64,000 bases of DNA. Source: Scenedesmus sp. PABB004. Lineage: Eukaryota. The stretch covers positions 1-64,000 of the forward strand of contig JABVCE010000027.1 of the NCBI GenBank assembly GCA_014905635.1, written 5' to 3'. Both the position numbers and the translations under genes were made by a program. The notes under the pieces are model-generated. The model was not told the DNA's origin. It worked only from the letters and a program-made list of their open reading frames with translations, and did not search any database. This document shows positions 22,779-40,900 of this stretch, in pieces; within the stretch, counting starts at the first letter, position 1; each line of letters opens with the position of its first letter.

Positions 22779-22852
22779 TTTTTTTTTTTTGTTTTTTGTT
22801 ACAATGGGTGACCAGACAAGGACCGAGGCCCAGGGGCAGCCCACTGAAAAAA
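22779..22852 (-). mobile_element. ~75-bp LINE 3' stub
   Basis: T-rich tail plus TTACAATGGGTGACCAGACAAGG...CACTGAAAAAA, flanked by duplicated GCTCCAACGGGC(T). Confidence 0.9.
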
Positions 22853-23223
22853 GCTCCAACGGGCTGCCCCGGCACGCGCTGCGCCGCCGAGGTCCGCCGC
22901 CGGCGGCCGTGCCGCGCCGCGGGCCGCGCGCCGCCCGCGCGCGCGCCGCTCGGCGGCGCCGCGGCGCAGCGCTGCCGGGCGCCGTTTCCCCTGCCCCGCC
23001 GGCCCTGCGGAGCGGAGGTGCGGGGCTCCAACGGGCTGCCCCGGCACGCGCTGCGCCGCCGAGGTCCGCCGCCGGCGGCCGCGCCGCGCCGCGGGCCGCG
23101 CGCCGCCCGCGCGCGCGCCGCTCGGCGGCGCCGCGGCGCAGCGCTGCCGGGCGCCGTTTCCCCTGCCCCGCCGCCCCTGCGGAGCGGAGGTGCGGGGCTC
23201 CAACGGGCTGCCCCGGCACGCGC
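22853..23223 (+). repeat. 172-bp satellite, segment 5
   Basis: About 2 monomers. Confidence 0.95.
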
Positions 23224-23522
23224 TGTTGAAGGTCCTGGGCTGTCTGGTCTGCTTGCAGGCCAGCCCGCAGCAGCAGCAGCGCCCTCGCGCGCCCACGCGT
23301 GCGCGCGTGCGCTGCTGAGCTGTTTCAGCAAGAGTTTCACTGCGAGAGCCGGGGGCTCAGAACTCCAGTGGAGTACACACCACCGTGAGCAGAAGGGTGA
23401 ACACGAGAAGTTCCCAGCCTGCCGCGTGCCCTATAAAGGCTCCGCGTGCCACCGGCGCTTGTAACGAAGCACTCTGCCGCACCCAATCAGCGCTCTCGCG
23501 ATCACAACACCACCGCGCAACA

Positions 23523-23534
23523 GGTTATGAGCCC
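23523..23534 (+). promoter_or_regulatory. Primer binding site, half-tRNA-iMet type
   Basis: GGTTATGAGCCC is the complement of GGGCUCAUAACC (anticodon stem-loop of tRNA-iMet). Confidence 0.85.
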
Positions 23535-24025
23535 ATCCCGGCTCTGACCTTCACGCTCCATCCGCTGCGCCACCCCGGTGGTTCATCGCATCGAGACGCT
23601 CAGTGCTTTCGTTCCGTGCGTCAGCGCCAAGTCTGCGACACCGCGCGAAGCCGGCAAGCCCAGCCATCTGCTGCGGCCCGAGCCCGAGCTTCGAGGGGAC
23701 GCCCTCCAGCGCTCCGTGTCTTCCAGACGCGCTTTGGTGACTCAGCTGAGTCGCTCACGCACGCGCGCACCGCCCCGGCAAGGCGGTAGCCTGACAGCAG
23801 CAGCCGGCATCCTTGCCTGCCGCGTGAGCTGCCCCTGTGCAGCCCGCGAGCGCCGCGCCACGCGCGTCAGTTCAGCGGTTTGAAGCAGCTCTCATCGCGG
23901 CGCGCGCCGCGTGTACTCGAGCGCTTCCACTCAAGTCTTCGCCGCACTGCTCTGCCCGCCCGCAGGCGCCTACGGACTACGGACGCGCCCGGGCCACGGC
24001 TGCAGTCCTACAGGCTACAGACATC

Positions 24026-27000
24026 ATGGCCGATCCAGAGGGTGTAGCCCTGGGTCGAGCCGGGGCACCGCTCGCCCCCAACGCTGCGGACATGGCGGCC
24101 GACCAGCGGGCCTACGTCGCCACCGTCACGCGCAAGCCCAACCCGACGATCCTCGCTGACGACGGCAGCAACTTCTTCGAGTGGCAGGACGAGCGCCACG
24201 GGGAGCTCATCATGCACAACCTCGAGGCCGTGCTCACCGACCCCGACCACCCGGCGTCGGTGCGCATCCACGCCGCCCTCAAGACCACCGTGAGCGCCGT
24301 CGTCAAGGGCGAGTTCCACACGTACCGGACCACTGCCGACGTGTGGGCTGCGCTCGAGGAGCAGAACGCTGAGATCGCCTCCGCGCGCACCGGCGACTCC
24401 CTCGAGCAGCTAGCGACCATCACCTTCAACCCGAGCTCCGGCATGCCCGACTACATCAAGCGCGCCAAGGCCCTGCGCACCAAGCTCGCCAAGGTGGACT
24501 TCCAGGTCGAGGACCACATCATGATCACCCACCTGCTGCGGGGGCTCCGGCGCGCGCCAGAGTACACCTTCACCTGCGAGTCGATCGGGAAAGACCTCGC
24601 CCGTGGGCAGATTACGCTGCAGGAGGTGTACCAGACCCTCCTCCGCAAGAACGCCTGGGACGGCAACGACGGCGACTCCTCCTCCTCCAAGGGCTACGCT
24701 GGCAACCGCGCGCTCTACGCCGCTGCCGAGCACGGCGGCGGCGGCCGGCCGTTCCGGCCCGCGCCCGCCGGCGCCGGCGGCGGCGGCGGCAACGCCGCTA
24801 GCCGCGCGCCCAAGCTCTTCTGCAACTACTGCAGGAAGATCGGCCACACCAAGGACCAGTGCCGCAAGCTCAAGAACAAGCCCGGCGGCCCGCCCGGCGG
24901 CCCGCCCGGCGGCGGCGCGCCCGGCAGCGGCCCGCCCAACGGCGGCGCGTCCGGCGGCGCGCCCGGGGGCAGCGGCCCCTCGGGCGGCGGCCACGCGCGC
25001 GGCGGCTTCTCCAAGTTCAACGGCCAGAGCGGCAAGAGCAGCCACGGCGGAAACCACGGCGGCGGCGGCAACAACGCCGGCCTCAACGTGGCGTGGATGG
25101 CGACGGGCGTCGCGCCCGCGCCGCGCGACGACCGCGAGTGGTTCACCGACTCCGGCGCGACGCAGCACATGTGCTGCAGCCGGGAGGCCTTCTTTGAGCT
25201 CCGGCCGAGCGGCGGCGTGGTGCACACCGCGAGCGGCGAGACCATCGAGATCAAGGGCATCGGGAACATCTTCATCACCATCCCCAACGAGCGCGTGTTT
25301 GCGCTCTTCAACGTGCTCTACGTGCCCGAGCTCGCCGCCAACCTGCTCTCCCTGTCCAAGGTCACCGACATGGGCTACAGCGTCATGATGAAGGGCGCGG
25401 CGACCCTCATCTACAGCGACGACGACACGCTGCCCGTGCTGCGCGCGCAGCGCAGCGCCAACGGCGTGTGCAGCTTCATCTGCGACTACGTCCCGTCGCT
25501 CGAGAACCTCAAGAGCCTCTGCTACGAGCCCGTCAGCCTGCTCACGCTCCACGACACCGAGAGCGAGTGCCGCCTCTGGCACGCGCGCTACGGCCACGCC
25601 GGCTGCGACCGCATCGCGCGGATCGCGCGCGACGACCTGGCCGTCAACTTCCCGCTGTCTGCCTCCACGGTCAAGGACTACGGCGCCTCCCACATCTGCC
25701 CTACCTGCGCCATGGTCAAGTCCAGCGAGCGGCCCTTCAAGCCGACCGGCCCCAACAACTTTGGGCCAGGTGAGTTGCTGCACACCGATGTCGGCGACAC
25801 CGGCGTACGCTCAGCCGGCGGCAGCCGCTACTACGTCACTCTGATCGACGACGCGACGGGCTTCTCGTTCTTCGTGCCGCTGGCCTCCAAGAGCTACGTG
25901 ACGAGCTTCCTCAAAGAGACCATTCCTTTGATCGAGACCGCGACCGGCAACCGTGTCAAGGTGCTGCGCTCGGACAATGGAGGCGAGTACAACTCCACCG
26001 AGCTGCACGCCTACCTCGCCACCAAGGGCATCAGCCACCAGTTCACCACGCCCTACAGCCCCGCCTCCAACGGCAAGGCTGAGCGGCTCAACCGCACGCT
26101 GCGCGAAAGCGCCGTCGCGATGCTCAAGGCGGCGGGCCTGCCCAAGACCGTGTGGGCTGAGGCCTTCCACACCGCCAACTTTCTGCGCAACGTGCTGCCC
26201 ACGGACGGCAAGTCCAAGACGCCGTGGGAGCTCTTCTTTGGCACCAAGCCCGACGCCTCGCGCCTGCGCGTGTTTGGCTGCCGCGCCTACGTGCACACGC
26301 CTGCCGCGCTGCGTACCAAGCTGGAGCCCAGCGCTCAGCCCGGCGTGTTCCTCGGCTACCCTTCCTTTGGTGTGAGCACCACCGACGGCTGGCGCGTGCG
26401 GCTCGACAACGGCAAGACCGTGACCTCGCGCCACGTCCGCTTCGACGAGTCTGACCTGCCCGGCCGCGCGCGCACGACTGCCGGCGCGACCGACGCCAAC
26501 CTGGTGAGCTCGCCCCCGAGCTCGCCGCTCGTGATCGGCAGCGGAGTGCCGCTCCTGCCCGCAGACAACACCGGCGCTGGTGGCTCTCTCAGCCCCAGCA
26601 GCTCGGGCGCTGCTGCCGGCGATGCTGGCGACGCTGGCGACGCTGCCGGCGACCCTGGCGACGCTGGCGACACTGCCGGCGCGCTTTGCAGCAGCGAGTC
26701 AGGCAACCTGAGTAGCATCAGCAGCTACAGCAGCGCCAGCGACTCATTTGTCAGCGCTGGCGACTCATTTGGTGACTCGGGCGACAGCCCTGGTCAGGCA
26801 CCGAGCAGCTCGGGGCACTCGCCCAGCAGCGGCGGCAACGCAGCGAGGCTGATTCCTGGGCAGTCGCTGGTCACGGCGCCCAGGCGCAGCGCGCGCATCG
26901 CCGCGCGGTCTGCAGTTCCTGTGCAGCCGCCTGCGATTCCTGGGCAGCCGCGCGCCGACGCCTTCCCTGTGGTGGAGCAGCCGCAGAGCGCGCTGCTCAC

Positions 27001-28570
27001 CACCGACACGTCTGGCAGCAGCATCGTCGAGCCTACCAGCTACGACGAGGCCATCAACTCCCCGCAGGCGGCAGACTGGATCGCCGCCATGGCTGAGGAG
27101 CTGGCCTCTCTCCACGCCAACCGTACGTGGGAGCTGCAGACCAAGCCGCCCGGGGTCAAGGCCATTCCATGCAAGTGGGTCTTCACGCTCAAGCGCGACG
27201 CCGCCGGCAACATCGAGCGCTTCAAGGCGCGGCTGGTCATCAAGGGCTTTCACCAGCGCGCCGGCATCGACTACAACGACGTGTTCAGCCCCGTCATCAA
27301 GTACCAGACCTTCCGCGCGCTGATGGCCGCCGCGGCCGCGCACGACTGGGAGGTCAGGCACTTGGACATCAAGACTGCCTTCCTCAACGGCCACCTTGAA
27401 GAAGAGGTGTGGATGCAGCAGCCACCCGGCTCTGGTGAGCACGGCTCTGTGCTCGCCTGCCGCCTGCGGCGCTCGCTCTACGGCCTCAAGCAGGCGCCGC
27501 GCGTGTGGAACCAGCGGCTGCACGCCGAGCTGGTTGCCATGGGTTTTGCCCAGACCGCGGCTGACCCCTGCGTGTACTACCTCTACAAGGAGGGCTCCTT
27601 CATCATCCTGCTCGTTTACGTCGACGACATCCTGGTCGTCACGCCGCACGCTGACCTGGCCGCGCGCTTTACCGCGCGCCTGCTCAATGCGTTCGAGGGC
27701 CGCGACCTCGGCCCCGCGAGCTGTTTCCTCGGCATGACCATCGAGCGCAACCGCGCCGCGCGCACCATGAAGCTCTGCAACCCGAGGCTGATCTACGGGA
27801 TGCTGGAGCGCTTTGACATGGGCGACGTTAAGCCCCGCGGCCTGCCCATGCAGGCGGGCCTGCACCTCTCCAACACCAGCGGCGAGCCCCTCAACACCGA
27901 GGAGTTCCACTACTCTGCGCTGGTCGGCGCTGCTATGTACCTCGCCACCTCGCTGCGCCCCGACATCGCGCACACTGCGAGCGTGCTGGCGCGTTTCATG
28001 GCCAAGCCCACCATCGTGCACTGGCAGGCAGCCAAGGGGCTGCTGCGATACCTCGCAGGCACGGCTGAGCTGGGCATCAACTACTCGGGCGGCCCCGCGG
28101 GCCTGCACCTGGTCGGTTACACCGACGCAGACTACGCGGGCTGCCCCGACACGCGCCGCTCCACCTCCGCCTTTGTGTTCACCATGGGCGGCGGCGCTGT
28201 CTCCTGGTGCAGCCAGCGGCAGAAGACCGTCTCGGTCTCCACGGCCGAGGCTGAGTATGTGGCTGCCGCTGCCGCGGTCAAAGAGGCCCTTTGGCTGCGC
28301 AACCTGCTGCGTGAGCTGGGCTCGCGCAACGCCAACACCATCAGCATCTGGGCCGACAACCAAGCAGCCATCAAGCTGCTGCACAACCCCATCAGCTCAG
28401 CCCGCACCAAGCACATTGACGTCGCGTACTGCTTTGCGCGCGAGCGCGTCGTGCGCGGGGAGGTGAGCTTTGCCTATCTGCCAACCGCTGACATGGTCGC
28501 CGATGTGCTGACCAAAGGGCTGCCCGAGGTCAAGCACAAGGCGTGCTGCGCGGGCATGGGCATGGGCTAG
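24026..28570 (+). CDS. Copia gag-pol polyprotein, uninterrupted
   Basis: CNYCRKIGHTKDQC knuckle; WFTDSGATQH; WHARYGH..CPTC..LRSDNGGEY..NGKAER; VYVDDILV; YTDADYA..AEAEY; first ATG of ORF 23837..28570. Confidence 0.95.
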   Translation: MADPEGVALGRAGAPLAPNAADMAADQRAYVATVTRKPNPTILADDGSNFFEWQDERHGELIMHNLEAVLTDPDHPASVRIHAALKTTVSAVVKGEFHTYRTTADVWAALEEQNAEIASARTGDSLEQLATITFNPSSGMPDYIKRAKALRTKLAKVDFQVEDHIMITHLLRGLRRAPEYTFTCESIGKDLARGQITLQEVYQTLLRKNAWDGNDGDSSSSKGYAGNRALYAAAEHGGGGRPFRPAPAGAGGGGGNAASRAPKLFCNYCRKIGHTKDQCRKLKNKPGGPPGGPPGGGAPGSGPPNGGASGGAPGGSGPSGGGHARGGFSKFNGQSGKSSHGGNHGGGGNNAGLNVAWMATGVAPAPRDDREWFTDSGATQHMCCSREAFFELRPSGGVVHTASGETIEIKGIGNIFITIPNERVFALFNVLYVPELAANLLSLSKVTDMGYSVMMKGAATLIYSDDDTLPVLRAQRSANGVCSFICDYVPSLENLKSLCYEPVSLLTLHDTESECRLWHARYGHAGCDRIARIARDDLAVNFPLSASTVKDYGASHICPTCAMVKSSERPFKPTGPNNFGPGELLHTDVGDTGVRSAGGSRYYVTLIDDATGFSFFVPLASKSYVTSFLKETIPLIETATGNRVKVLRSDNGGEYNSTELHAYLATKGISHQFTTPYSPASNGKAERLNRTLRESAVAMLKAAGLPKTVWAEAFHTANFLRNVLPTDGKSKTPWELFFGTKPDASRLRVFGCRAYVHTPAALRTKLEPSAQPGVFLGYPSFGVSTTDGWRVRLDNGKTVTSRHVRFDESDLPGRARTTAGATDANLVSSPPSSPLVIGSGVPLLPADNTGAGGSLSPSSSGAAAGDAGDAGDAAGDPGDAGDTAGALCSSESGNLSSISSYSSASDSFVSAGDSFGDSGDSPGQAPSSSGHSPSSGGNAARLIPGQSLVTAPRRSARIAARSAVPVQPPAIPGQPRADAFPVVEQPQSALLTTDTSGSSIVEPTSYDEAINSPQAADWIAAMAEELASLHANRTWELQTKPPGVKAIPCKWVFTLKRDAAGNIERFKARLVIKGFHQRAGIDYNDVFSPVIKYQTFRALMAAAAAHDWEVRHLDIKTAFLNGHLEEEVWMQQPPGSGEHGSVLACRLRRSLYGLKQAPRVWNQRLHAELVAMGFAQTAADPCVYYLYKEGSFIILLVYVDDILVVTPHADLAARFTARLLNAFEGRDLGPASCFLGMTIERNRAARTMKLCNPRLIYGMLERFDMGDVKPRGLPMQAGLHLSNTSGEPLNTEEFHYSALVGAAMYLATSLRPDIAHTASVLARFMAKPTIVHWQAAKGLLRYLAGTAELGINYSGGPAGLHLVGYTDADYAGCPDTRRSTSAFVFTMGGGAVSWCSQRQKTVSVSTAEAEYVAAAAAVKEALWLRNLLRELGSRNANTISIWADNQAAIKLLHNPISSARTKHIDVAYCFARERVVRGEVSFAYLPTADMVADVLTKGLPEVKHKACCAGMGMG

Positions 28571-28985
28571 GGGCATCGCGCGTGCGTGGGAGCTGTGCAA
28601 ACCGCTTCGCGCGCTGCGTGGTGTGTGTTGGTTGATTACACTCACTTCTCTCGTGCGTGCTGCCTGCAATGCAGCCCACGTGGGAGTGTTGAAGGTCCTG
28701 GGCTGTCTGGTCTGCTTGCAGGCCAGCCCGCTGCAGCAGCAGCGCCCTCGCGCGCCCACGCGTGCGCGCGTGCGCTGCTGAGCTGTTTCAGCAAGAGTTT
28801 CACTGCGAGAGCCGGGGGCTCAGAACTCCAGTGGAGTACACACCACCGTGAGCAGAAGGGTGAACACGAGAAGTTCCCAGCCTGCCGCGTGCCCTATAAA
28901 GGCTCCGCGTGCCACCGGCGCTTGTAACGAAGCACTCTGCCGCACCCAATCAGCGCTCTCGCGATCACAACACCACCGCGCAACA

Positions 28986-29663
28986 CGCGCTGCGCCGCCG
29001 AGGTCCGCCGCCGGCGGCCGCGCCGCGCCGCGGGCCGCGCGCCGCCCGCGCGCGCGCCGCTCGGCGGCGCCGCGGCGCAGCGCTGCCGGGCGCCGTTTCC
29101 CCTGCCCCGCCGCCCCTGCGGAGCGGAGGTGCGGGGCTCCAACGGGCTGCCCCGGCACGCGCTGCGCCGCCGAGGTCCGCCGCCGGCGGCCGCGCCGCGC
29201 CGCGGGCCGCGCGCCGCCCGCGCGCGCGCCGCTCGGCGGCGCCGCGGCGCAGCGCTGCCGGGCGCCGTTTCCCCTGCCCCGCCGCCCCTGCGGAGCGGAG
29301 GTGCGGGGCTCCAACGGGCTGCCCCGGCACGCGCTGCGCCGCCGAGGTCCGCCGCCGGCGGCCGCGCCGCGCCGCGGGCCGCGCGCCGCCCGCGCGCGCG
29401 CCGCTCGGCGGCGCCGCGGCGCGGCGATGCCGTGCGCCGTTTCCCCTGCCCCGCCGCCCCTGCGGAGCGGAGGTGCGCGGCTCCAACAGGCTGCCCGGCC
29501 ACGGGCTGCGCCGCCGAGGTGCGCCGCCGGCGGCCGCGCCGCGCCGCGGGCCGCGCGCCGCCCGCGCGCGCGCCGCTCGGCGGCGCCGCGGCGCAGCGCT
29601 GCCGGGCGCCGTTTCCCCTGCCCCGCCGCCCCTGCGGAGCGGAGGTGCGGGGCTCCAACGGGC
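28986..29663 (+). repeat. 172-bp satellite, segment 6 (contains one divergent monomer)
   Basis: About 4 monomers; substitutions clustered at ~29420-29521. Confidence 0.95.
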
Positions 29664-29798
29664 TTTTATTTTTTGTTTTTTGTTACAATGGGTGAGCTTT
29701 TTTCAGTGGGCTGCCCCTGGGCCTCGGTCCTTGTCTGGTCACCCATTGTAACAAAAAAAAAAAAAAAAAAAAGGCCCAGGGGCAGCCCACTGAAAAAA
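29664..29798. mobile_element. LINE 3' stub (minus) interrupted by a second LINE 3' stub (plus, 29694-29772)
   Basis: T-tail-TTACAATGGGTGA | GCTTTTTTCAGTGGG...CATTGTAAC-poly(A) | GGCCCAGGGGCAGCCCACTGAAAAAA. Confidence 0.88.
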
Positions 29799-30154
29799 GC
29801 TCCAACGGGCTGCCCCGGCACGCGCTGCGCCGCCGAGGTCCGCCGCCGGCGGCCGCGCCGCGCCGCGGGCCGCGCGCCGCCCGCGCGCGCGCCGCTCGGC
29901 GGCGCCGCGGCGCAGCGCTGCCGGGCGCCGTTTCCCCTGCCCCGCCGCCCCTGCGGAGCGGAGGTGCGGGGCTCCAACGGGCTGCCCCGGCACGCGCTGC
30001 GCCGCCGAGGTCCGCCGCCGGCGGCCGCGCCGCGCCGCGGGCCGCGCGCCGCCCGCGCGCGCGCCGCTCGGCGGCGCCGCGGCGCAGCGCTGCCGGGCGC
30101 CGTTTCCCCTGCCCCGCCGCCCCTGCGGAGCGGAGGTGCGGGGCTCCAACGGGC
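29799..30154 (+). repeat. 172-bp satellite, segment 7
   Basis: About 2 monomers. Confidence 0.95.
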
Positions 30155-30206
30155 TTTTTTTTTTTGTTTTTTGTTACAATGGGTGACCAGACAAGGACCG
30201 AGGCCC
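30155..30206 (-). mobile_element. LINE 3' stub, tail-proximal part (split by the gypsy insertion; remainder at 43020-43044)
   Basis: Same stub as 22779-22852; continues as GCCCAGGGGCAGCCCACTGAAAAAA after 43019. Confidence 0.9.
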
Positions 30207-30406
30207 TGACGCACCAGATGAGCGACCCGTCGGATGAGCGCTGAGCGCCCCCGCTGCTGCTGCTCTGCCCTCACGCAACACACACCTGCGAGGCGCACAC
30301 ACGCGGCAGTTGACCCCAACTGCCCAGTTCAGGCCGCACCCGCTGGCTGTAGCGCGTGCGCGCAGTGACCAGGCCTGAGCGCTGCGGCCAGTCCAGCCGC
30401 TGCACA
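30207..30406 (-). repeat. Repeat A, terminal copy (200 bp)
   Basis: TGACGCACCAGATG...CCGCTGCACA; same as 30960-31159. Confidence 0.95.
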
Positions 30407-30410
30407 GGAT

Positions 30411-30957
30411 AGGGATTGCCCCACCCGGGATGCTCGCGGTCGGCTGCCCGACCCAGCACTCTGCTCTGGCGCGCCGCGGTCGCGATCGCTTCCTTTGCTT
30501 GCTGGCTCCCCCTGTGGCGTGCCCAGTGCTCGCGTCGACCTCTGCCCGCTCGCGGCGTGCGGCTGGGACTGTCGGGCGCGGTGGTTACCGTTGGCTGGTG
30601 CTCGACTGGGTTCTGGGGGGCGCTCGTCCCTCGCGGGGCGCGCCTAAGTTCACTCAGCGAGCGCGCAGCCAAGGGCGAACCCTGCCCCGTCAGCAAGGTC
30701 GCACTGGTTGCGAATCGGTGTGTAACCCCCACTCGGCCAGCACGCCTTGCAATGGCGCCTGCCGCTGCACAAAAGGCCTCAGACTAGGCCCCGCCACACA
30801 CAGCAGAGAGCACGGTCGCTGCCGTGCGCGGTCACCCGCGCTGCAGTACATGCCCCGGTGACCCCGCTGCTGCGCGCGCATGCAAGCCCACCAGTGCTCA
30901 GTCCGGCCGGCCCCAGGCCTAGCCTCCATCGGGCAGCAGCCCCCATCGGTGCTGACA
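30411..30957 (-). repeat. Repeat B, internal copy (547 bp)
   Basis: AGGGATTGCCCCACCC...GGTGCTGACA; same as 42473-43019. Confidence 0.95.
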
Positions 30958-30959
30958 GC

Positions 30960-31159
30960 TGACGCACCAGATGAGCGACCCGTCGGATGAGCGCTGAGCG
31001 CCCCCGCTGCTGCTGCTCTGCCCTCACGCAACACACACCTGCGAGGCGCACACACGCGGCAGTTGACCCCAACTGCCCAGTTCAGGCCGCACCCGCTGGC
31101 TGTAGCGCGTGCGCGCAGTGACCAGGCCTGAGCGCTGCGGCCAGTCCAGCCGCTGCACA
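30960..31159 (-). repeat. Repeat A, internal copy (200 bp)
   Basis: Separated from repeat B by the 2-bp spacer GC. Confidence 0.95.
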
Positions 31160-31473
31160 ACCCCCCAGCAATCACGCACGAGGTGAGGAGGCGGGATTGC
31201 TCAAAACGCGGGTGCTGGCAGCAGCGCTCGCAATGCTGCCAAGAGCACAACACACACATGACAAAGGCCCTGCAGCGGCGGCACGCACGCTGCTGGAACC
31301 AGGCACACCAGGCATTGGCACACGCACACCGCGCGGGGCAGATTCACCCGCTCCCCGCACATGCACATGCGCGCGCCCACGCGCCTGATCCCTCGCTGCA
31401 GTTGCCAACTGCCCCAACTGCCAGAGCTGGGCAGGCTGCAGCGCCCGACCGAAACTGTCCCCACTGCAGCTGC

Positions 31474-32658
31474 TCAGCGCAGCCTCTTGAGCTCAGACAT
31501 CTGGCTCGCCATGACAAAGGCCATCTGCTCAAACGTCTTCAAGTGACTGTTGTGCTGCTGCAGCATCTGCTGCACCTGCTCCTCCGTATACATCTGCGGT
31601 GCTGCCGCCTGCGTCTGCGGCGCCAGCTGCAGCATCTGCGCGGGCTGCGCCGGCAGGGCAACAAGCTGGTTCTGCCCCTGGCTGCTCTGCTCCTGCTGGC
31701 TGACCTGCTGCGGCGGTGGCGCACCGCCCTGACGCTGCCTCTGCACACTGCGCTGCGTCTGGTCACTGCTCTGGACAAAGTCACGCTGCAGCCGCCGCTG
31801 CTGCTCGCGCTGCGCGTATTCCATCGGCTGGCTGCCCTGCGCGCGTCTGCCGCGCTGCTGCGGCTCAGAGCGCCGCGGCGCCTGGCGGTCCGCGGGTCTG
31901 CCCTGGCGCTGGCCACTGGGCTCCTGGCTGCGCCGCGGGCGCTCCGTCCAGCGCCGAACGCCCGCTGGGAAGCAAAGGAGCTGGCTGAAAAGCCGATGCT
32001 GCCGCGACGTGATCTCACGGCAGTTGCTGCACTCCTTTGTGTCATGCGCGCAGGGCCCGTGCAGCTCGCACCAGGTGCGCCGGCCCTTGAAGCAGGCGTG
32101 CTCCTTGTAGCTGCCGCCTGTCTGCTGCTCCAGCAGCTCCCGCGCGGCCTGTGGTCCGCTGACCCGGCCGGCCCGGTAGTCCTCCAGCAGCTGCCAGGCT
32201 TTGGCCTCATACGGCTGCTGCTGGCTCTGGGCGCCAAGCTGGCTGTTGCGCCCCGAGCGCTCACCCTGCGCCGCAGGGCTGCACCCCCGCGCGGAGCGCT
32301 CTGCAGGTCCCTGGTCGGGGTCGTGAGGGCGCCGGCCGTGGCGGTTGCGGCTGCGGCTCCTGCTCCGGTTGCCTCGCCACGTCTGCAGGTCCGGCTGCTC
32401 CTCTCCCACGTCTTGAGGTGGCGGGCGGTCCGTGTGCTTGGAGCTCCCGCCGCTGTTCTGGCTGTGGCTGCAGTTGCGGTCGCTCGGCTCCTCCGCTGCC
32501 TCCGGGCTGGCCACATAGCCATCGTCGCCGCCGCTGCCGAGGCGTGCCAGCAGCTGTGCCGACAGGCCCCGCTGCTCATCGTTGCTCGTCCCCGGGGCGG
32601 CTTCCGGCATCTCCATCTCCTCATCCCCAAAGTCCAGCAGCTCCTCTTCACCCTCCAT
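31474..32658 (-). CDS. Extra ORF3 of the gypsy element: low-complexity protein with a Cx2Hx4Hx4C-type zinc knuckle
   Basis: ATG at 32658 (MEGEEELLDF), acidic N-terminus, WCELHGPCAHDTKEC, Q-rich C-terminus; open for ~394 codons. Confidence 0.65.
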   Translation of the reverse strand: MEGEEELLDFGDEEMEMPEAAPGTSNDEQRGLSAQLLARLGSGGDDGYVASPEAAEEPSDRNCSHSQNSGGSSKHTDRPPPQDVGEEQPDLQTWRGNRSRSRSRNRHGRRPHDPDQGPAERSARGCSPAAQGERSGRNSQLGAQSQQQPYEAKAWQLLEDYRAGRVSGPQAARELLEQQTGGSYKEHACFKGRRTWCELHGPCAHDTKECSNCREITSRQHRLFSQLLCFPAGVRRWTERPRRSQEPSGQRQGRPADRQAPRRSEPQQRGRRAQGSQPMEYAQREQQRRLQRDFVQSSDQTQRSVQRQRQGGAPPPQQVSQQEQSSQGQNQLVALPAQPAQMLQLAPQTQAAAPQMYTEEQVQQMLQQHNSHLKTFEQMAFVMASQMSELKRLR

Positions 32659-32800
32659 TGCCTGAGCAGCGGCAGTGTCGGCACGGGAGGGCAGTGTCAG
32701 CACTCGCCGGTTTGGCGGCTTGGCACACAGCGGACTGACGCGTGAGCACCCCCCAACCCCCAGCCAGGCCTCCATCTCTCCCGGTGCGGCATCAGCCTGA

Positions 32801-35800
32801 TCAGTGGCTGGGTCCTGCGGTCGTGTCGCCAAAGGCGCCGTCGCGTGGCAAGCGCACGCCTGCGGGCAGGAGCGTGTCCTGCGGGGTGAGGATCTTGGTG
32901 AGCTCCGCTGTGGCATAGCGGTACACGTCCCCATCCTCCCAGCACACATCAAAGTACGCCGGCCGACGCTGCTCGCCCATGAAGTGCGCGCGGCCCCAGA
33001 AGAGCCTGCGCTGGCCCGTCTGCCGATCCACAAAGTGCTGGCGCACCAGCCTGCCGTGCAGCTGCTTGGCTGCCTCGTCACGCTCGCGCATTGCGCGGTC
33101 TGGGTAGAGGTTCGCCCCCTCGTCGCGCTGCTCCCGCGCCTGGCGCTGGCGCACTGCGGCCTGCAGCTGCTGCTGCGTCACGCCGTCAGCGACGCACCTC
33201 GGGCACATCCAGTCGCCCTCGGGCACTTGATCCAGGCTCGGCTCCAGGCAGTGTTGGTGCCAGCCCGCGTCACAGTGATCGCACAGCAGCATCTGGTTCG
33301 CTGTGTGTGACTCCAGGTGCCCGCACGCCTCGCAGCTCGCCTCCTGCGGCTGCTCTGCCAGGGCTGGGTCAAGTGTGGGGTCGATCCCTAGCAAGTGGCA
33401 GGGCGCACACTGTGAAATGTGGCGGTCGATCTTGCGTCCGCAGCGGCCCTGCAGCATGAGGCGGCCGCTGGGCCTGACCTCCAGCACGCGCAGAATCACC
33501 GGGCGCGCGCGTGGCTGCAGCGCGCTGTACGCGTGAGTGTACGCGACATACACAAAATCACCTTGTTTGAACGTGGGCGTTCTTGGCTGGATCTCCCCGC
33601 TTCGCAGTCGCGCGTAGCGCAGCGTGTCTCGCTGCTGCGCGATCTCCAGGTTCGCCATGGCCTCAGGTGCCAGGCGCTCGACCAGCTGCCTGCGTGCGGC
33701 CAAGTCGGCGGCGGCCAGGTCAGGTGCGTCGAGGTCCAGCGGCTGGCTCAGCCGCTCCATCACTGCAGGCGGCACAATTGGCGCGCGTGCATAGAGCAGC
33801 TCATATGGCGTGAGGCCGGTGCTGCGCTGCGGGCTGCAGCGGTAGCCCAGCAGCAGCCAGGGCACGTGCATGTCCCAGTCACGCACTGCCTGCCGCTGCA
33901 GGCACGTTTTCTCCAGGGCTGCCTTCACAATATGAACAGATTTCTCCGCCGCGCCATTGGCAGCGGGATGGTTGGCTGAAGTGGGGCGCGAGTCAATGAG
34001 GCAGTCCAGCAGCAGCTGCTGGAAAGCACCCTGCCACTCGCCCCCGCGGTCGTGCACGACCTCGGCACACGCGCCAAAACGCGCGAGCACGTTGTGCAGG
34101 AAAGCATAGGCAGTGCACTCTGGCGTTTTCTCCGCAATAGGAATGGCCTCAATGTTCTTACTAAAGTGCTCCACACACACCAGGATGTAGCGGTGCCCCC
34201 GCTCTGAGCGCGGGAAAGGCCCGCACAGGTCCACGCCCCAGCGGTACATCATGCCGCGGATGGGCAGCGGCTGCAGCTCAGCTGGGCGCGCTGTAAAAGC
34301 TGCGCGGACCTGCCCGCACTCAGGGCAGCCGCCCACCAGCGAAGCCGCGTCGGCCAGCAGGCCGTGCCACCAGTGCGTGTGGTGCGCGAGTGCCGCAGTG
34401 CGGCGCACGCCAAAGTGCCCGCACCTGTCGTGGAAGCTCTTGAGCAGCTCCCGCCGTTCAGCCGGAGGGGGCACCACACGCGTGCTGTTGTCGGGCATGA
34501 GTCGCAGCAACTGCCCGCCCTGCCAGCGGTAGTACGCGCGGCGCTTGGCCACTCTGCAGCGCTCAGCCGCGTTTGTGCCCGCTGGGAAGTCTCCGTTCTG
34601 CAGCAGGTGCAGGGCGGTTGCGTCGGCCCAGATGTCACTGCTGCTGCCCTGCAGGGCGTCCTGCTCCGCTGCTGCCGCCAGCGCACATAGCACGCCGTAC
34701 GGCTTGCTCCCAGCAGCCTTGCTGGCTCCCATCTCGGGCACAAGTCCTGCCACTGGTTGTGTGCTGCCATGCTCCGCCCAGGCCCGGGCAATCGCCCAGA
34801 GTCCCGCCAGGCAGGCTGCATCGATCGCCTCGCCCAGGGCACGGCGGCGATCTCTGTCCGACACGCCAGGCGCGGCTGTTGCGCCCTCCGCATAGCCGAG
34901 CGCGCGCTCACGCTCGACTGTCAGGGGCTGGTCCCACGTGCCGTCTGCTGCGATCACGCTGCCCGGCTTGCCTGGCCTGAAGCTGTAGCTGTTGGGGTGC
35001 GCCATCAGCGTTGGCCAGGCTGCCATGGGCTGCCCTGGCACATTGCAGGGGTAGCGTGGTGGGAAATCAGGGTGCTTGACCGGCTGCTCCCGCCGCCCAG
35101 GCTCCAGTATTTGTGAGACCGTGAGGCCCGGCGGCCTCTGCACCTGCGCCGCAGCAGCGGCCAGTTGGGCAGGTGAGCATGCGTTCGTCCAAAACGCTCG
35201 CACGCGGTGCGCGCGGCTCCCAAACTGCGCTGCGTCCAGCACTGTCGGCTGGCCCAGCGCGTCACAAATCACTTTGAAGTCCTCCTCCGCAATGCGGTTG
35301 TCGCTGTGCCATTGCACTGGCACGTTCTCCAGCAGGTAGCAGGGCGGCTGGTCTGGTTGCAGCTGCTGCAGCGTGCCGATCAGGCGCACAATCTCGGTGA
35401 GCAGGCCTGATCGCGCCCCGCGCAGGCCCGCACCCGACCCAGCTGTGCTGAGGTCCTGGCAGGGCCATCCGCCCACCACGAGCCAGGGTTGGCGTTGCAG
35501 CGATGCTCCTTCTTGCACCAGGTGCCATGTCGTGATCTCGCGCACGTCTTGCGGGAGAGAGAACATGCCCTGCAGGGCAGACGTGGGCAGCAGGTCAGGA
35601 TACAGCGCTGTTAGCTGCTGCACTCTGTGCGCTGCTATCGCCCGGCTGGTGGGGTTGATGTCCACATACAGGTACTTGTGGATGCGTTTCCCTCCACGCA
35701 GGGCCATCTCCAGGCCCGCACACAACCCCCCAAACGCGTCCACAAGGACCAGGCCTTGCGTCGCTGCCGGAAAGAAACTCGCCGCCACGCTGGCGGTGGC

Positions 35801-37930
35801 CAGACCTGTGGCCCGGCGCACCCCAAATGCATCACGCGGCCCCGCGTGCGCACCTCCCGCGGGCGCGGCGGCTTGAGCCTGTGCTGCCGGCAGGTGTGGC
35901 ACCGCCGCTTGCACCCATGCGCGCGCCGAGCGCGCCAGTTGCCTTGCTGCCAGCTGGGCCGCGTAGGAGGCGTCATCCGGCAGTTGGTCCGCCGCGTCTG
36001 TGAAGGAGCCGTTATTGCCTGCCAGCAACGCGGCGGCGTCGGGCAGGAAAGAGTCAAGCCGGGTCTCACCAGCCGTCGCGCGCTCCAGAAGCTGTGCCTG
36101 CAGCTGCGGCTGGCTGGGCGGCGCCAGGGCTGTGCCCAGCAGCAGCGCCCCTGCCGCGGTGCTGTTCTGCGGCTTGGCCGCTGCGCGCTGCTGCTCCAGG
36201 AGCTCCCACGTGTACTCCGTCGTGTCCGGCGTGCCATCAGCCTGCAGCACTGCCGGCTGCAGCTGATACATGGGCTCCCTTGTGCGGTCCAAGCGCGCAC
36301 CTGCCGCGTCCACCGTTGTGGCTCGTGGGTGCCTGCTTGGCACATCTGCCACGTTGCTTTTGCCGGCCTTGTGGACCAGGGTGAACTCGTAGTCCTGCAG
36401 CGACAGCACCCAGCGCGCGTGCTGCCCTGTGGGCTCCTTGGCTGCGAGTAGCCAGAGCAGCGGGCGGTGGTCGGTGTGCAGGTGGAAGTGGGGCCCCTGC
36501 AGGTATGGGCGGAACGTCTTGACGCCCCATACTGCCGCCAGCGCCTCACCTTTCCAGGCCTCGTACCGCCGCTCGTGCTCGTTGAGCGAGCGAGAGGCAC
36601 AGGCGACCATGTACTCCCCCCCGTTCTGGTCTCTCTGGTTGAGCACGGCAGAGATGCCGTGAGGGCTCCAGTCCGTATACAGGTGGTATGGCCGTGAGGG
36701 GTCTGGGTGGCGCAGCACCGCAGTGGGTGAGGTGAGCGCATCGCGCAGCCTGTCAAAGGCAGCCGCCTGCTCTGGTCCCCACACGAAGCGCGTGCCTTTC
36801 TTGAGCAGTGCGTTGAGAGGCGCCGCAATAGCCGAGTACTCAGGCACATAGCAGCGATAAAAGCCCAGCACGCCCAGGTAGCTGCGCACTTGATCAGCCG
36901 AGGTTGGCGGCGCCAGCTCGCGCATTGCGGCGACCTTCGCCTGGTCAGGCTGCATGCCACTCTCACTGACCAGGTGGCCCAGGAAGGGCATGGAGTCGCT
37001 GCACAGCACCGTTTTGGATGGATGCGCGCGCAGCCCGACCGTCCGGAAACGGCCAAACAGCAGGCGCAGGCACCTCAGGTGGTCCTCAAATGTCTTAGTG
37101 TAGATACATATGTCATCCACAAAGACCACAGCAAAGTCTTTGAGCCCTGCTGCGCGCAGTTCGTGTTCCATTATTCTCTGGAAGATGGCGGTGGCGTTCA
37201 CGTGCCCAAAGGGCAGGCGCGTGAAGCTGTACAGCCTGCCTTCCCACCAGAAGCACGCGTAGCGCTGTGACGCCTCATCCAGCGGGATGTTGAAAAACCC
37301 GGACCTGCAGTCGACTTTGCTGCGCCACGTAGCACCTGCCATTCGCCGGAACAGCTCCTCTGGCAGAGGCAGTTTGTACTTGTCAATCACGGCGTTGGCG
37401 TTGATCGCCCGCCCATCGTAGCAGAACCTCTTGTCAGTGAGGGTGCCATCAGGCGCTCGCTTCGCCGCCATGACGATGGGGCAGGCATGTGTCATGCCAT
37501 GTGTGCTGACCTCGCGGATCACGCCCGCGTCAAGCATCTCCCGCACTTTCTCCCTTCCAATGTCCAGGTCCCTGGGGCTGGGCTTGCGCTCCGGGCAGAT
37601 GATGGGCTCCTCTGTCTTCATGCGCAGCTGCGCAGGGCCCAGCTCGCCCTTGTAGCCCACCAAGTCCTTCATCTCATACGCGAACACATCTTTGTGCTCG
37701 AGCAGCACCTGCTGCAACTGCTCTTTCTGCTCTGCTGTGAGCTCTGGGTGGTTCCCATGTATCCATTTGTGCTCTGGGTCCTGTTCCCAGCGGTCAGAGA
37801 GCTCCTCTGTCTCCTGCTCCCCTCCCGCAGTGTACGCCTCCAGCGGCGTCTGGCCAATCGCCGCTGCTGCAGGGTCCCGATCCTTGCCCCTCTGGCTCTC
37901 ACGCCTGCGGCTGCCTGCCGCCGACGCGAA
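32801..37930 (-). CDS. Gypsy pol: RT, RNase H, C5 cytosine DNA methyltransferase, integrase, PHD, Tudor-like (5' limit set at the inferred frameshift site)
   Basis: LPFGHVNA, FVDDICIY; YTDWS..EALAAVW..TDHRPL; DAFGG, GGWPCQDLS, ENV, RVRAFW; H..GHFG..CPEC, VDLCGP, HDRGGEW, NGAAEK; CEAC..CDHC..H..C..WMCPRC. Confidence 0.93.
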   Translation of the reverse strand, partial: FASAAGSRRRESQRGKDRDPAAAAIGQTPLEAYTAGGEQETEELSDRWEQDPEHKWIHGNHPELTAEQKEQLQQVLLEHKDVFAYEMKDLVGYKGELGPAQLRMKTEEPIICPERKPSPRDLDIGREKVREMLDAGVIREVSTHGMTHACPIVMAAKRAPDGTLTDKRFCYDGRAINANAVIDKYKLPLPEELFRRMAGATWRSKVDCRSGFFNIPLDEASQRYACFWWEGRLYSFTRLPFGHVNATAIFQRIMEHELRAAGLKDFAVVFVDDICIYTKTFEDHLRCLRLLFGRFRTVGLRAHPSKTVLCSDSMPFLGHLVSESGMQPDQAKVAAMRELAPPTSADQVRSYLGVLGFYRCYVPEYSAIAAPLNALLKKGTRFVWGPEQAAAFDRLRDALTSPTAVLRHPDPSRPYHLYTDWSPHGISAVLNQRDQNGGEYMVACASRSLNEHERRYEAWKGEALAAVWGVKTFRPYLQGPHFHLHTDHRPLLWLLAAKEPTGQHARWVLSLQDYEFTLVHKAGKSNVADVPSRHPRATTVDAAGARLDRTREPMYQLQPAVLQADGTPDTTEYTWELLEQQRAAAKPQNSTAAGALLLGTALAPPSQPQLQAQLLERATAGETRLDSFLPDAAALLAGNNGSFTDAADQLPDDASYAAQLAARQLARSARAWVQAAVPHLPAAQAQAAAPAGGAHAGPRDAFGVRRATGLATASVAASFFPAATQGLVLVDAFGGLCAGLEMALRGGKRIHKYLYVDINPTSRAIAAHRVQQLTALYPDLLPTSALQGMFSLPQDVREITTWHLVQEGASLQRQPWLVVGGWPCQDLSTAGSGAGLRGARSGLLTEIVRLIGTLQQLQPDQPPCYLLENVPVQWHSDNRIAEEDFKVICDALGQPTVLDAAQFGSRAHRVRAFWTNACSPAQLAAAAAQVQRPPGLTVSQILEPGRREQPVKHPDFPPRYPCNVPGQPMAAWPTLMAHPNSYSFRPGKPGSVIAADGTWDQPLTVERERALGYAEGATAAPGVSDRDRRRALGEAIDAACLAGLWAIARAWAEHGSTQPVAGLVPEMGASKAAGSKPYGVLCALAAAAEQDALQGSSSDIWADATALHLLQNGDFPAGTNAAERCRVAKRRAYYRWQGGQLLRLMPDNSTRVVPPPAERRELLKSFHDRCGHFGVRRTAALAHHTHWWHGLLADAASLVGGCPECGQVRAAFTARPAELQPLPIRGMMYRWGVDLCGPFPRSERGHRYILVCVEHFSKNIEAIPIAEKTPECTAYAFLHNVLARFGACAEVVHDRGGEWQGAFQQLLLDCLIDSRPTSANHPAANGAAEKSVHIVKAALEKTCLQRQAVRDWDMHVPWLLLGYRCSPQRSTGLTPYELLYARAPIVPPAVMERLSQPLDLDAPDLAAADLAARRQLVERLAPEAMANLEIAQQRDTLRYARLRSGEIQPRTPTFKQGDFVYVAYTHAYSALQPRARPVILRVLEVRPSGRLMLQGRCGRKIDRHISQCAPCHLLGIDPTLDPALAEQPQEASCEACGHLESHTANQMLLCDHCDAGWHQHCLEPSLDQVPEGDWMCPRCVADGVTQQQLQAAVRQRQAREQRDEGANLYPDRAMRERDEAAKQLHGRLVRQHFVDRQTGQRRLFWGRAHFMGEQRRPAYFDVCWEDGDVYRYATAELTKILTPQDTLLPAGVRLPRDGAFGDTTAGPSH

Positions 37931-40900
37931 AGCTGTTGGTTTGCAGCTGCTGTGCTGCTCCCCATGCCTGCGCCTGCGCCTCTGCGTGCGAGGGCGGCAG
38001 TGGCGCGCGTGTGTCGGCCCACGGCATGCGCAGTGCGCTGCTGCCTGGCGGCGCCAGGTGCGTGCTGAGCTGGCCAGCGGCGTGCCCCGTGGCCGCAGCG
38101 CCGGCGATCAGCAGCAGCAGCAGCGCGCACTGCAGGGGCAGCGCCTTACGCACAAAGCCGCGCGTGAAGGTGCGACGCCACATCTTGAACTTTCTCGGCG
38201 CATTGCACTCTGTGCCGTCAGGCGCGATGGGCGGCCTGAGGCAGCGCACATCGCCCGTCTCCATAGAACGGTAGCGCCAGCGCCCGATGCGCACGTAGAG
38301 GTCTGGTGCGCGCGCCCAGGGCACGTGCTGCTTCAGCCCTGCGCGCACGTGGCGCCAGGTGCCGCTCAGCCGGGCTCGCAGCCCGCTGCTCAGGCAGCAC
38401 GCGAGAACGCGCGGCACCCAGAGCGCGGCTGCGCAGAGCCAGCCCACCTTGTGGAGGATGCTGCGCACTGCCGTGTAGATCAGCGGCAGTCTGGGCGCAG
38501 GGCGGGGCCGGTGCCAGGTGTGGCTCAGGAGCTTGGTGGCGCTGGCGTAGGCCTCCTCCGCGCCCTGGCCCACCACGCCCAGCGCGAGCACCGCGCCCGC
38601 GCTGATGAGGGGCGCCTGGCTGAGGAGCATCAGGACCGGCAGCACCAGCAGCACCAGCAGCGCGTCCCGCGCGGTGTTCAGCGCCTTGAGCGCGCGCTGC
38701 AGCCAGCTGCAGCTGGGCTCGCTTTTGGCGTGGCCCTGCTCCTCGCCCTCGTTCTCCTCTGCGCGCAGCGTGCAGGCCGGCATCGGCTCCGTGCATGCGG
38801 CGGGCGTGCGTTCCGCCGGCTCGCTGCGCGCGGTGAGCCGCACCTGCATGCAGGCGAGCTTCGCCCCGTTGGTGGCCGGGCGCCCGCTGATGTAGTAGAA
38901 CTGGCTGTTGAACGGCAGCACGAAGCCGCTCACTTTGTCGATGATGTCCCGCCCCAGCACAGCGCCGTACATGCCGTACGCGCTTGGGCTGTCCACGACC
39001 AGGAAGCCGTCTGGCAGCTCCAGGCTGACCTCGTCCTCGGTGCCGTGGCCCAGGATGACCGCCACCGGCTCAGTGCGGCCGATGATGCTGGTCGTGGGCT
39101 GGCCCTCGATCGTGCTGACTGGTGGCAGCTGCTCCGGCAGCAGCCGGTACACGTGCAGGCCCATCTCCTGCGCCAGGCGCTGGTTGATGATAGAGGGGAC
39201 GCAGCCAGAGTCGGTGGCGGTGTTCTGCATCTGCATCACGCGCCCGCCGCTGGTGCGCACCATGGGAAGCTGCGGGCCATCAAACTTGATCATCGTCTGG
39301 CGCTGCCCTGTGCTGCGCTTGAACGCTGCCATCTGCTGCTCAAAGCTCGTGCTGCTGCCTGCGACGGCGTGCAGCTCCTCCAGCGCCTGCGCGCTTCTGC
39401 CATCCTCAGCCAGCTGCGCCAGCGCCACGGGCGCGTTGGTCGCTGCTGCGCGCGGCTGGCTGTTCTCCATCTCCTGGCCCTGCATCATCTCCTGGATCTT
39501 GCCCAGCTGGCTGGCTGCCAGCGGCTTCTCGCTCTCAAACACGATCTTGACCTTGAACTGCGGCGGCACCGGTTCGGCAGACGGCCTGCTCAGGGCCGGC
39601 TCCATGCCGCTGCTCAGCGGCGGCGCCGTGCGCGGCTGCGCGTTGTCCGCCGGCAGGAAGCTGCAGGGCATCACGCTCCTGCGCGCGCCGCGCGTGGCCG
39701 CGCCTGCGCTCAGCGAGTGCTCACCGATCTCGCAGAGCGAGCCCGCCGGCATGTGCTGCCAGTTGCTCAGGCTGCTGTTCTCCCAGCGCTCGCTGCCCTG
39801 CGGCTGGTGCAGCGGCGGGGTCTCATACTCGGGCCAGAGGGCCGCCGCGGCGACTGGCCCGCGCGCCTGCTGCTGGCGCTGGTGCTGCGCGGGCGTGGAG
39901 CCCCGCGCGCCGCTCTCACCAGACCAGGCCGGCTGGATCTTCAGCTCCTTGCAGCGCCTGAGGTAGTGCTGCACCGCGCCGGGCTCAGCGTTCCTGCCAG
40001 GCGCCCAGTTGGCAGGCGCCTTGTTGGGCTGGTCGTACCAGCAGACTGCGTGGCCTGGCCCAAAGCGGCAGTAGGGGCAGGGCGCGGGCGCGCGGTTGGT
40101 GCCACCGCTCGTGTGCGGGCGCAGCTCTGGCGGCGGCAGCGCGCGCTGCTGCGCCGCGCCCGCCGGCTGCATCGGCCGCGCCTGCTGCCAGTGGTGGTGG
40201 CCGCGCGGCTGGCTGTAGCCGTAGTACGACTGCCGCGTGTCGTAGCCGTCGGCGTAGGCGCCTGCGGGCGCGCTGTAGGGCATGTCAGCGCGCACGTCCT
40301 GGCTCGCGAAGGCAGCGCCCGCCAGGGCGTGGTGCGGCGCGCTGGCGGCCCAGTTGCCCGGGCGCTGCCCTGCGCCGCGCCGATCTCCCACCTGCCTTGG
40401 GCCCTGCACCTCGCGCGAGCCGCCGCCGCGCTCCTTGCTGCCCTGCACCTTGGCGTCCATGGAGCCGAGGAAATCGTGCCCCGCCTTGCGGAAGAGGCTG
40501 GCGCGCAGCGTGGACTGCGTGACTGCCTGGTGCTTCTCCGCGCACTCCAGCACGTTGTCCAGCGTCAGGCTGCCCAGGCCCTGCGCGATCACCTGCTGCT
40601 GCACCATGGCCCTGCAGGCGCCGCTGCTCAGCCCTGCGATGAACACCTGCGCCGCGCTGTCGGGCATGATGTGCAGCTCGCAGCGCAGCGTCCGGACGGC
40701 CTGCCGGATCCGCTGCGCGTACTCCTGCAGCGTGGCGTCGCCCTGCTGCATGGTGAAGAACTCGCTCACCTGCTCCTGCGTGGCGATGCAGAAGCGCAGC
40801 TCCATGATCAGCAGCAGCCGCTCCACCACGTACAGCACTGGCGTCCAGCGCTTGCCGGGCTGGTCGCCCGTGGTGGTGTAGATGACGGTCGCGCTGGCCT

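Follow-up and report, generated by a model that had tools for sequence, protein, structure and literature searches.

Retroviral-type integrases are, in the textbook account, enzymes that act on the tips of linear complementary DNA (cDNA); circles carrying two long terminal repeats (2-LTR circles) are treated as dead ends, and the proposal that integrase can reopen them rests on disputed evidence. Among the bacterial elements IS3, IS30 and IS911, abutted ends separated by a short spacer form the active substrate of a DDE enzyme. Here we describe a 64,000-nt stretch of the genome of the alga Scenedesmus sp. PABB004 (contig JABVCE010000027.1, positions 1 to 64,000 of the forward strand; GenBank assembly GCA_014905635.1), referred to below as the window, in which positions 30207-43019 are one 12,813-bp retrotransposon with the minus strand as its coding strand. 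Inside this element its two ends abut as ...GCGTCA-GC-TGTCAGC.... The best explanation, to which we assign a joint probability of roughly 0.6, is that a Ty3/gypsy-type LTR retrotransposon with permuted LTRs, belonging to a green-algal lineage, was inserted here recently and is still intact, and that its integrase would cleave the CA-GC-TG palindrome in a putative end-joined, 2-LTR-circle-like intermediate. The likeness to IS3 and IS30 is only an analogy: the IS elements are DNA transposons that move without reverse transcription and form their junction transiently, whereas the junction described here is encoded in the integrated copy.

Cleavage of joined ends by a DDE integrase has a retroviral precedent, as the prototype foamy virus (PFV) and human immunodeficiency virus type 1 (HIV-1) integrases are described in the available portions of two reports as cutting the palindromic 2-LTR junction, a CA...TG palindrome, into 3'-processed ends (PMC1180852, PMC1905944), which is the reaction proposed here. 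In retroviruses, however, the junction does not exist until reverse transcription has taken place, most of the circles are by-products and the proviruses carry ordinary LTRs, whereas every LTR of the Scenedesmus element encodes a junction, with a 2-bp spacer, and its integrated copy has a permuted layout. The repeat layout itself has its parallel elsewhere. Split direct repeats in the order A1-internal-B1-A2-B2 define one type of the DIRS order (PMC8969392, accessible text), and the Chlamydomonas element TOC1 is now placed among the non-autonomous members of that order (PMC9940879, PMC5613634, accessible text). The split-repeat tyrosine-recombinase elements (Ngaro, PAT-like, TOC1/TOC3, SymbioDIRS-Dnmt3) share with the Scenedesmus element this order and the internal joint of the termini, and many of them, as it does, carry a methyltransferase after RNase H; they differ in using a tyrosine recombinase and, in the accessible text of PMC8969392, in making no target duplication, where the Scenedesmus element has a DDE integrase, TG...CA ends and a 4-bp duplication. 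The initial annotation of this DNA had seen the joint but missed the match of the layout to the split-direct-repeat pattern.

The only DDE element with this layout returned by a search of the full-text literature (subscription journals and theses lay outside it) is KnitGypsy-Dnmt3 of Klebsormidium nitens, through a remark in the legend to Fig. 4c of de Mendoza et al. 2018 (PMC5890265) that gives it a DIRS repeat structure (A-coding-B-A-B) and Gypsy-typical domains. Compared by feature description, not by phylogeny, both elements combine a C5 DNA methyltransferase inside a Gypsy pol with A-coding-B-A-B repeats; the Klebsormidium element has a streptophyte host and a DNA methyltransferase (DNMT) of the Dnmt3 type, and the Scenedesmus element additionally has a PHD finger. 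The available portion of that paper does not discuss the mechanism, target duplication, palindromic joint or primer sites of KnitGypsy-Dnmt3. A 2026 preprint, in its accessible part, describes streptophyte Gypsy-DNMT3 elements along with several chlorophyte LTR lineages that bear a methyltransferase, with no mention of split repeats or self-priming. Within the scope of the same full-text search, neither the proposed mechanism nor its conserved sequence basis was found, and what appears new is an LTR retrotransposon with permuted, split LTRs, a layout noted once in the literature available, for Klebsormidium. Gypsy-7a_cRei, whose left LTR is said to stop 8 bp short of the end of its right LTR, was considered as a small version of the design and rejected: the library entry is an ordinary LTR followed by tggtttcgc..., a tRNA-type primer-binding site (PBS), and its 'LTR subparts' are simply LTRs.

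On the coding strand the Scenedesmus element reads A-PBS-gag-pol-PPT-B-GC-A-ATCC-B (PPT, polypurine tract), starting with TG at the A start and ending with CA at the B end. Two complete, identical LTRs at the two ends are not present; the 5' end is A alone, and a B precedes the 3' A-x-B, in which x is a short filler. The parts and the flanking duplications are, from left to right in the window:

30203-30206: left target-site duplication GCCC; the empty site reads ...GAGGCCCAGGGG...
30207-30406, minus strand: B1, the terminal 200-nt repeat B, coding-strand 3' end of the element, ending ...GGTGCGTCA; 100% identical to 30960-31159
30407-30410, minus strand: filler x, separating the A end from the B start, GGAT on the plus strand and ATCC on the coding strand
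30411-30957, minus strand: A1, the internal 547-nt repeat A, starting TGTCAGCACC on the coding strand, with a PBS-complementary 12-mer at 30610-30621
30944-30973: internal end-to-end junction, CATCGGTGCTGACA-GC-TGACGCACCAGATG on the plus strand and ...CATCTGGTGCGTCA-GC-TGTCAGCACCGATG on the coding strand
30956-30961: CAGCTG palindrome, spanning the GC spacer
30958-30959: GC spacer between A1 and B2
30960-31159, minus strand: B2, the internal repeat B, which the G-tract immediately precedes on the coding strand
31160-42472: internal region between B2 and A2
42473-43019, minus strand: A2, the terminal repeat A, coding-strand 5' end, starting TG, with a candidate start of R at 42672-42683
43020-43023: right target-site duplication GCCC

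By repeat finding and self-BLAST, B1 and B2 are 100% identical and A1 shows no difference from A2; the stretch 30411-30959 (A1 with the GC spacer) likewise does not differ from the terminal A copy region. Because the repeat copies are identical, the element is young. No B homology that could represent a degenerate 5' B was detected downstream of the 5' A, where the best local alignment is a 22-nt chance match, and self-BLAST returned no further copies of the element within the 64-kb window. Standard LTR finders would mis-annotate elements of this kind, as the 5' 'LTR' is 204 bp shorter than the 3' one.

The internal abutment of the termini, claimed in the initial annotation, is borne out by both junction 14-mers, which recur at the two element ends. 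The left 14-mer CATCGGTGCTGACA has one other site, 43006-43019, which is the right element end (2 matches versus 0.31 expected from shuffles); the right 14-mer TGACGCACCAGATG has one other exact site, 30207-30220, which is the left element end (2 exact matches and one with 2 mismatches versus 0.40 expected from shuffles). The element start TGTCAGCACCGATG and end CATCTGGTGCGTCA form an imperfect inverted repeat of ~14 nt. The flanks read ...GGACCGAGGCCC, element, GCCCAGGGGCAGCCCAC, and the uninterrupted site CAAGGACCGAGGCCCAGGGGCAGCCCAC has 4 further occurrences in the window versus 0 expected. Because this empty site occurs four times elsewhere in the window, the whole 12.8 kb was inserted in one unit with a 4-bp GCCC duplication, and TG...CA ends with a duplication of 4-6 bp are what is expected of Ty3/gypsy elements. 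These ends and the 4-bp duplication constitute the canonical reading, under which the GC spacer is absent beyond the termini, as first annotated; the right flank nevertheless opens with GC and the left flank closes with C, and retention of GC at the right end, which would leave a duplication of 2 bp (or of 1 bp if the left C were counted as element), is a formally admissible alternative. Taken together, the TG...CA ends, the ~14-nt imperfect inverted repeat and the 4-bp target duplication support termini of the integrase type. A complete Copia element in the same satellite (~23226-28985, plus strand) provides an internal control and is ordinary, with LTRs of ~297 bp, TGTTG...CAACA ends and a 5-bp duplication, CGCGC; because this control is conventional, ordinary LTR elements look ordinary in this assembly.

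The coding capacity agrees in type with these ends, a DDE integrase being the sole enzyme for integration that was detected. The relevant features are:

32801-38107, minus strand: pol, an uninterrupted 1768-residue frame with the stop codon as the last three bases of the range
37899-41867, minus strand: gag-protease, a 1322-residue frame overlapping pol, with a weak Retrotrans_gag match and a DSG motif
41989-42329: tandem repeats of the 5' leader, 34-35-nt unit in at least 6 copies, between PBS and gag (repeat finding, self-BLAST)

Pol matches RVT_1, RT_RNaseH, C-5 DNA_methylase, Integrase_H2C2, rve and PHD, and the overall order protease, reverse transcriptase, RNase H, integrase is that of Ty3/gypsy elements. 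In a 24-sequence alignment the integrase residues D1293, D1353 and E1388, the YxDD aspartates of the reverse transcriptase and the methylase motifs IV (PC) and VI (ENV) are invariant. At E <= 1e-10, 152 related proteins were found among 8000 candidates scored, the best at 61% identity, with named examples from Haematococcus, Monoraphidium and Tetrabaena; a scan of IMG/VR gave 52 loci, all matching the methyltransferase segment of the query alone and treated as unrelated DNA-methylase genes on viral contigs. No tyrosine recombinase (Phage_integrase) match was obtained up to E=1 in 46 of the 47 six-frame open reading frames (ORFs) of at least 120 residues, nor in the 47th, which is pol itself. 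Of three characters of DIRS elements, then, the element shows one, the split repeats; it has no detected tyrosine recombinase, and it does have a target duplication. These results bear on the proposal of a DIRS-type element that depends for its movement on a tyrosine recombinase acting in trans, or else of an assembly artefact. Split direct repeats are indeed typical of DIRS-type elements, and TOC1 is a non-autonomous one of this layout (PMC9940879, PMC5613634, accessible text). Given the 4-bp duplication, the TG/CA ends, an intact DDE integrase with no recombinase match in any ORF of at least 120 residues, repeats that are 100% identical and in register, and a layout that recurs in independent assemblies (see below), both versions of this proposal are highly improbable.

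To compare related elements, a metagenome scan with the pol alignment was used; it gave 79 loci, the longer of which (34, 36 and 32 in successive analyses) were examined. Four relative families have a covered LTR (L002/L006, L004, L009-L011 and L014), with pol identities of 44-49%. Sites were kept where a run of at least six G abuts TG downstream of pol and the flanks are palindromic; a gapless palindrome score and a loose regular expression for G-run...CAGCTG were abandoned because of many chance hits. The initial annotation had named a lack of conservation of the spacer and the palindrome as a result that would refute it; the outcome is in its favor, as GC and CAGCTG are both kept in 4/4 families, as CG(T/A)CA-GC-TG(T/A)C; in a five-lineage alignment of the junction CG.CAGCTG.C is invariant, against a background density of CAGCTG in these loci of 1.5-2.6 per kb. 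The junction is thus kept even though pol identity among these families is no higher than 44-49%. A G-run precedes B in 3/3 families with that boundary covered (G8-G9 in the relatives, G6-G9 with the window element included), and B measures 199-214 nt across the families in which its length could be taken. The individual loci read:

L006: G8, then TGTAAG...; B ~202-204 nt; junction CTCGTCA-GC-TGACGTG
L014: G9, then TGTTCGG...; B 199 nt; junction GTACGACA-GC-TGTCAGG
L009-L011: G8-9, then TGTGATG...; B 214 nt; junction GGTCCGACA-GC-TGTCGGGCC
L004: G-run and B start outside the contig; junction CCGCGTCA-GC-TGACATG

The near-constant length of B, close to 200 nt, may reflect an integrase-binding, U5-like end together with signals for 3'-end formation; a TGTAA poly(A) signal lies at the B start in L002/L006 and is absent from the LTR parts of the window element. 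In the L009-L011 family a second site, G8-TGA...(193 nt)...GGATCA-GC-TGTCAG, lies just downstream of the PBS candidate (L011 589-790; also L009 8474 and L010 12841), and its palindrome is weaker. Coverage limits some other loci, with L005 and L008 ending 129 and 45 nt after G-run-TG and L001, the closest relative (57%), short of 3' sequence.

The positions of the primer sites give the strongest argument for an end-joined or circular intermediate. They are:

31160-31169, minus strand: polypurine-tract-like GCTGGGGGGT, directly 5' of B2 on the coding strand
42461-42472, minus strand: self-priming PBS candidate GTTCTGGGGGGC, beginning at the first base after A2

The G6 tract proposed in the initial annotation as a plus-strand primer is present as C6 on the plus strand at 31161-31166, one base from B2, a position that fits this role. 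The 12-nt PBS candidate can pair without mismatch with a site that lies ~210 nt upstream, within A. Equivalent pairs occur in L002 (site in A GTGTCTGGTTT, PBS AAACCAGACAC, offset 0 from the A end) and in L004 (site GCGCTCGGCTT, PBS AAGCCGAGCGC, offset 2), and hence the 11-12 nt after A are perfectly complementary to an A-internal site in 3/3 independently fixed A ends, where among the control 11-mers only 2, 0 and 1 of 3000 (window element, L002 and L004, respectively) had a perfect complement in A. The sequences of both partners differ in every lineage, with the pairing kept. Further PBS candidates (L001, L011, L014 and others) were left uncounted, chance pairs being expected there. In both leaders tested, those of the window element and L002, the pairing closes the minimum-free-energy fold, and the L002 leader exceeds its shuffles in stability (z = -3.0). 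A tRNA-type PBS (TGGGGGGCC...) was also considered and dropped in favor of self-priming, on the strength of the exact complement inside A and the covariation in relatives. We regard the site in the window element as a candidate for Tf1-like self-priming, from which the transcript start is predicted. In elements of the Tf1/sushi and Tcn1 types the PBS is complementary to the start of the element's own transcript and not to a tRNA (PMC6317226, accessible text); those elements have conventional LTRs, unlike the present one. Self-priming is not reported for algal chromoviruses in the accessible part of the same survey. The octamer CTGGGGGG is common to the PBS candidate (42462-42469) and the polypurine tract (31160-31168) on the coding strand; no such sharing occurs in relatives, the L002 PBS having no G-run, and it is probably a coincidence.

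With the PBS adjoining the 5' repeat (A2) and the polypurine tract adjoining the 3' repeat (B2), the two primer sites together delimit a B-GC-A unit and not the integrated ends. A G-tract 5' of B and a PBS 3' of A therefore mean that reverse transcription should yield B-GC-A ... B-GC-A, an LTR that would be circularly permuted relative to the integrated ends. The predicted tips of the linear cDNA, the B start (TGTGCAGC...) and the A end (...GCAATCCCT), have neither CA nor an inverted repeat; the ends at the GC junction, unlike these, have both. Because the primer sites define one LTR and the integrated ends are its circular permutation, the integrated ends should not be the tips of the reverse-transcription product.

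In the mechanism that would follow, the two tips of the linear cDNA are first connected, so that the A end meets the B start across 0-4 nt of filler in a 2-LTR-circle-like or tandem-LTR molecule; such an intermediate is called for because the integrated copy holds an A end-ATCC-B start joint that is absent from any linear monomer. Integrase would then assemble on one CA-GC-TG palindrome and nick after CA on both strands, leaving two CA ends, each with a 3'-OH and a 2-nt 5'-GC overhang, as in 3'-processed retroviral ends. Strand transfer with a 4-bp stagger would follow, with the GC removed by repair. Cutting at the other palindrome would give A-x-B-GC-A-int-B, and cutting at both would give A-int-B and a solo A-x-B. 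Since R would stand at both transcript ends only if the palindrome is cut in the LTR 5' of the PBS, the other products would fail to give such a transcript, and this would explain why the observed arrangement is the propagating one. We infer each of these steps, from the joining to the cleavage and the selection of its site. The initial proposal that staggered cutting after CA turns a circle directly into integration-ready ends is thus sustained in what it builds on, namely the abutting termini, their type, the DDE enzyme and the conserved palindrome, with the circle and its cleavage still conjectural.

The A-end/B-start joint recurs in the relatives. In L006 it lies at 9854/9855 with no filler, the contig stopping 55 nt into the second B; in L002 it is part of an exact 824-nt tandem, again with no filler; and it is also present in L004, where the filler is apparently 0 nt if B begins at TGTACAG. 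Such adjacency of A end and B start requires joined LTR ends. This bears on a reading without any circle, in which a longer linear, concatemeric or over-extended cDNA is 3'-processed by integrase at a CA far from the tip. Identical CA-GC cleavage chemistry would apply, and the truncated-pol joint of L001 (described below) can be taken as showing aberrant template switches in the group. LTR-int-LTR-int concatemers, however, lack the A-end/B-start joint that the window copy, L002, L004 and L006 contain, and we know of no such intermediate for DDE retroelements; this reading is quite unlikely.

The same recurrence counts against the window copy being a one-off, through integration of a dead-end 2-LTR circle or through local rearrangement in an otherwise conventional family. 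2-LTR circles are usually by-products, and a single copy was seen, both of which would suit that view. Against it stand the palindrome, the ~200-nt B and the primer sites kept in four other families, the A-to-B joint in relatives, and the presence of CA and an inverted repeat at the junction ends with neither at the LTR ends that reverse transcription would set. A later rearrangement is ruled out by the clean 4-bp duplication, since the empty site is present in 4 copies, and the Klebsormidium DNMT-bearing Gypsy is drawn with the same repeat layout in the figure legend of PMC5890265. A one-off event is accordingly very unlikely.

The length of the filler, 0 in L002/L006 and 4 in the window copy, suits end-joining without proving it. 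A joint made by the reverse transcriptase with no host end-joining, either on a B-A splint or template as in DIRS, Ngaro and PAT-like elements or by end-to-end template jumping, followed by integrase cleavage at CA-GC-TG, is an alternative that we consider unlikely. In its favor, the A-int-B-A-B order is the DIRS split-direct-repeat layout (PMC8969392, PMC5890265, accessible text), the precision of the 0-nt joints in L002/L006, and apparently L004, would suit a templated join, and the order reverse transcriptase-RNase H-methyltransferase in the window pol parallels that of DIRS pol. With the PBS and polypurine tract where they are, however, standard strand transfers never copy the terminal x-B, the 4-nt filler of the window copy is untemplated by its own flanks, and DIRS-1 is reported, in the available portion of PMC7192593, to use linear single-stranded cDNA.

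Several points weigh against permuted LTRs cut at an encoded junction. The material is one genomic copy of the family and its assembled relatives, and consists of sequence only. Neither of the primer-site flanks, GTTC beside the PBS and T beside the polypurine tract, matches the filler ATCC, and the fold of the window leader is no more stable than shuffles (z = -0.86). With two identical palindromes per circle, functional insertions should be about matched in frequency by dead-end ones, permuted or repeat-less, which is a cost. All relatives come from metagenome contigs, some of them apparently de Bruijn assemblies: L006 stops on a 55-nt repeat, L011, L014, L031 and L033 close into 'LTR plus internal' cycles and are uninformative on termini, and the tandem LTR units in L002 and L004 could be walks through an assembly graph. 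Among more distant loci with a G-run (L022, L028, L029, L030 and L033) no convincing palindrome was found; L017-L020 have no qualifying G-run, and L017 and L018 show a weak zero-spacer CA/TG candidate only.

The wider claim, that a whole algal clade of DDE-integrase retrotransposons uses end-joined DNA of the 2-LTR-circle type as its obligatory substrate, with the junction hard-wired in each LTR as a restriction-like site, is put forward tentatively, at somewhat less than even odds. If it were true, the 'circles are precursors' pathway, abandoned for retroviruses, would be the main route here, and these elements would form a mechanistic bridge between LTR retrotransposons and split-repeat DIRS-type elements, having the same permuted genome with the enzyme swapped. 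Confirmation of the narrower mechanism would make available a natural system, open to genetics, in which a DDE integrase cleaves a junction; it would also account for the DIRS-like repeats of DNMT-bearing Gypsy elements and bear on the origin of DIRS-type elements.

Two of the relatives show further rearrangements. L001 contains a 5.6-kb direct repeat (1-5583 versus 6557-12142), and its first pol copy (5530-5600 region) is truncated within methylase motif I, where a joint leads to sequence starting two bases ahead of the R-start 11-mer (ACGCCTAGAAT); this joint looks like an aberrant first-strand transfer at the RNA 5' end, or could be an assembly chimera. In L004 the tandem LTR units at 1-877 and 892-1770 are nearly identical up to the R-start 11-mer (GCGCTCGGCTT) and then diverge to the A end (~90% overall), and may represent a recombinant or a walk across two subfamilies.

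The Gypsy element sits in a repetitive neighborhood. Its insertion target is a T-rich unit of ~80 bp (T11GT6GTTACAATGGGTGACC...GGCCCAGGGGCAGCCCACTGAAAAAAGCTCC) found at satellite array borders in both orientations (22780-22856, 29694-29771, 30155-30206 with 43020-43050, 8253-8280 and 12373-12400), and one pair of these units is 99% complementary across 6.8 kb. The arrays consist of a 172-bp satellite with a GC content of up to 0.89, also in both orientations, at 8234-12419, 17606-23225, 28984-30206 and 43020-43143, with fragments elsewhere. To the right of the element, a region of ~80% GC holds apparent host-gene fragments with JmjC and XPA_C domains, at 47748-49148 and 51494-53848 on the minus strand. 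Four retroelements lie in or beside the satellite arrays, and the region looks like centromeric or other heterochromatic DNA. A second Ty1/copia element, at 2839-6420 on the plus strand, is seen as a pol ORF alone, and an 810-residue ORF with an RVT_1 domain only, at 14518-16950 on the minus strand between two satellite blocks, could belong to a long interspersed nuclear element or other non-LTR retroelement.

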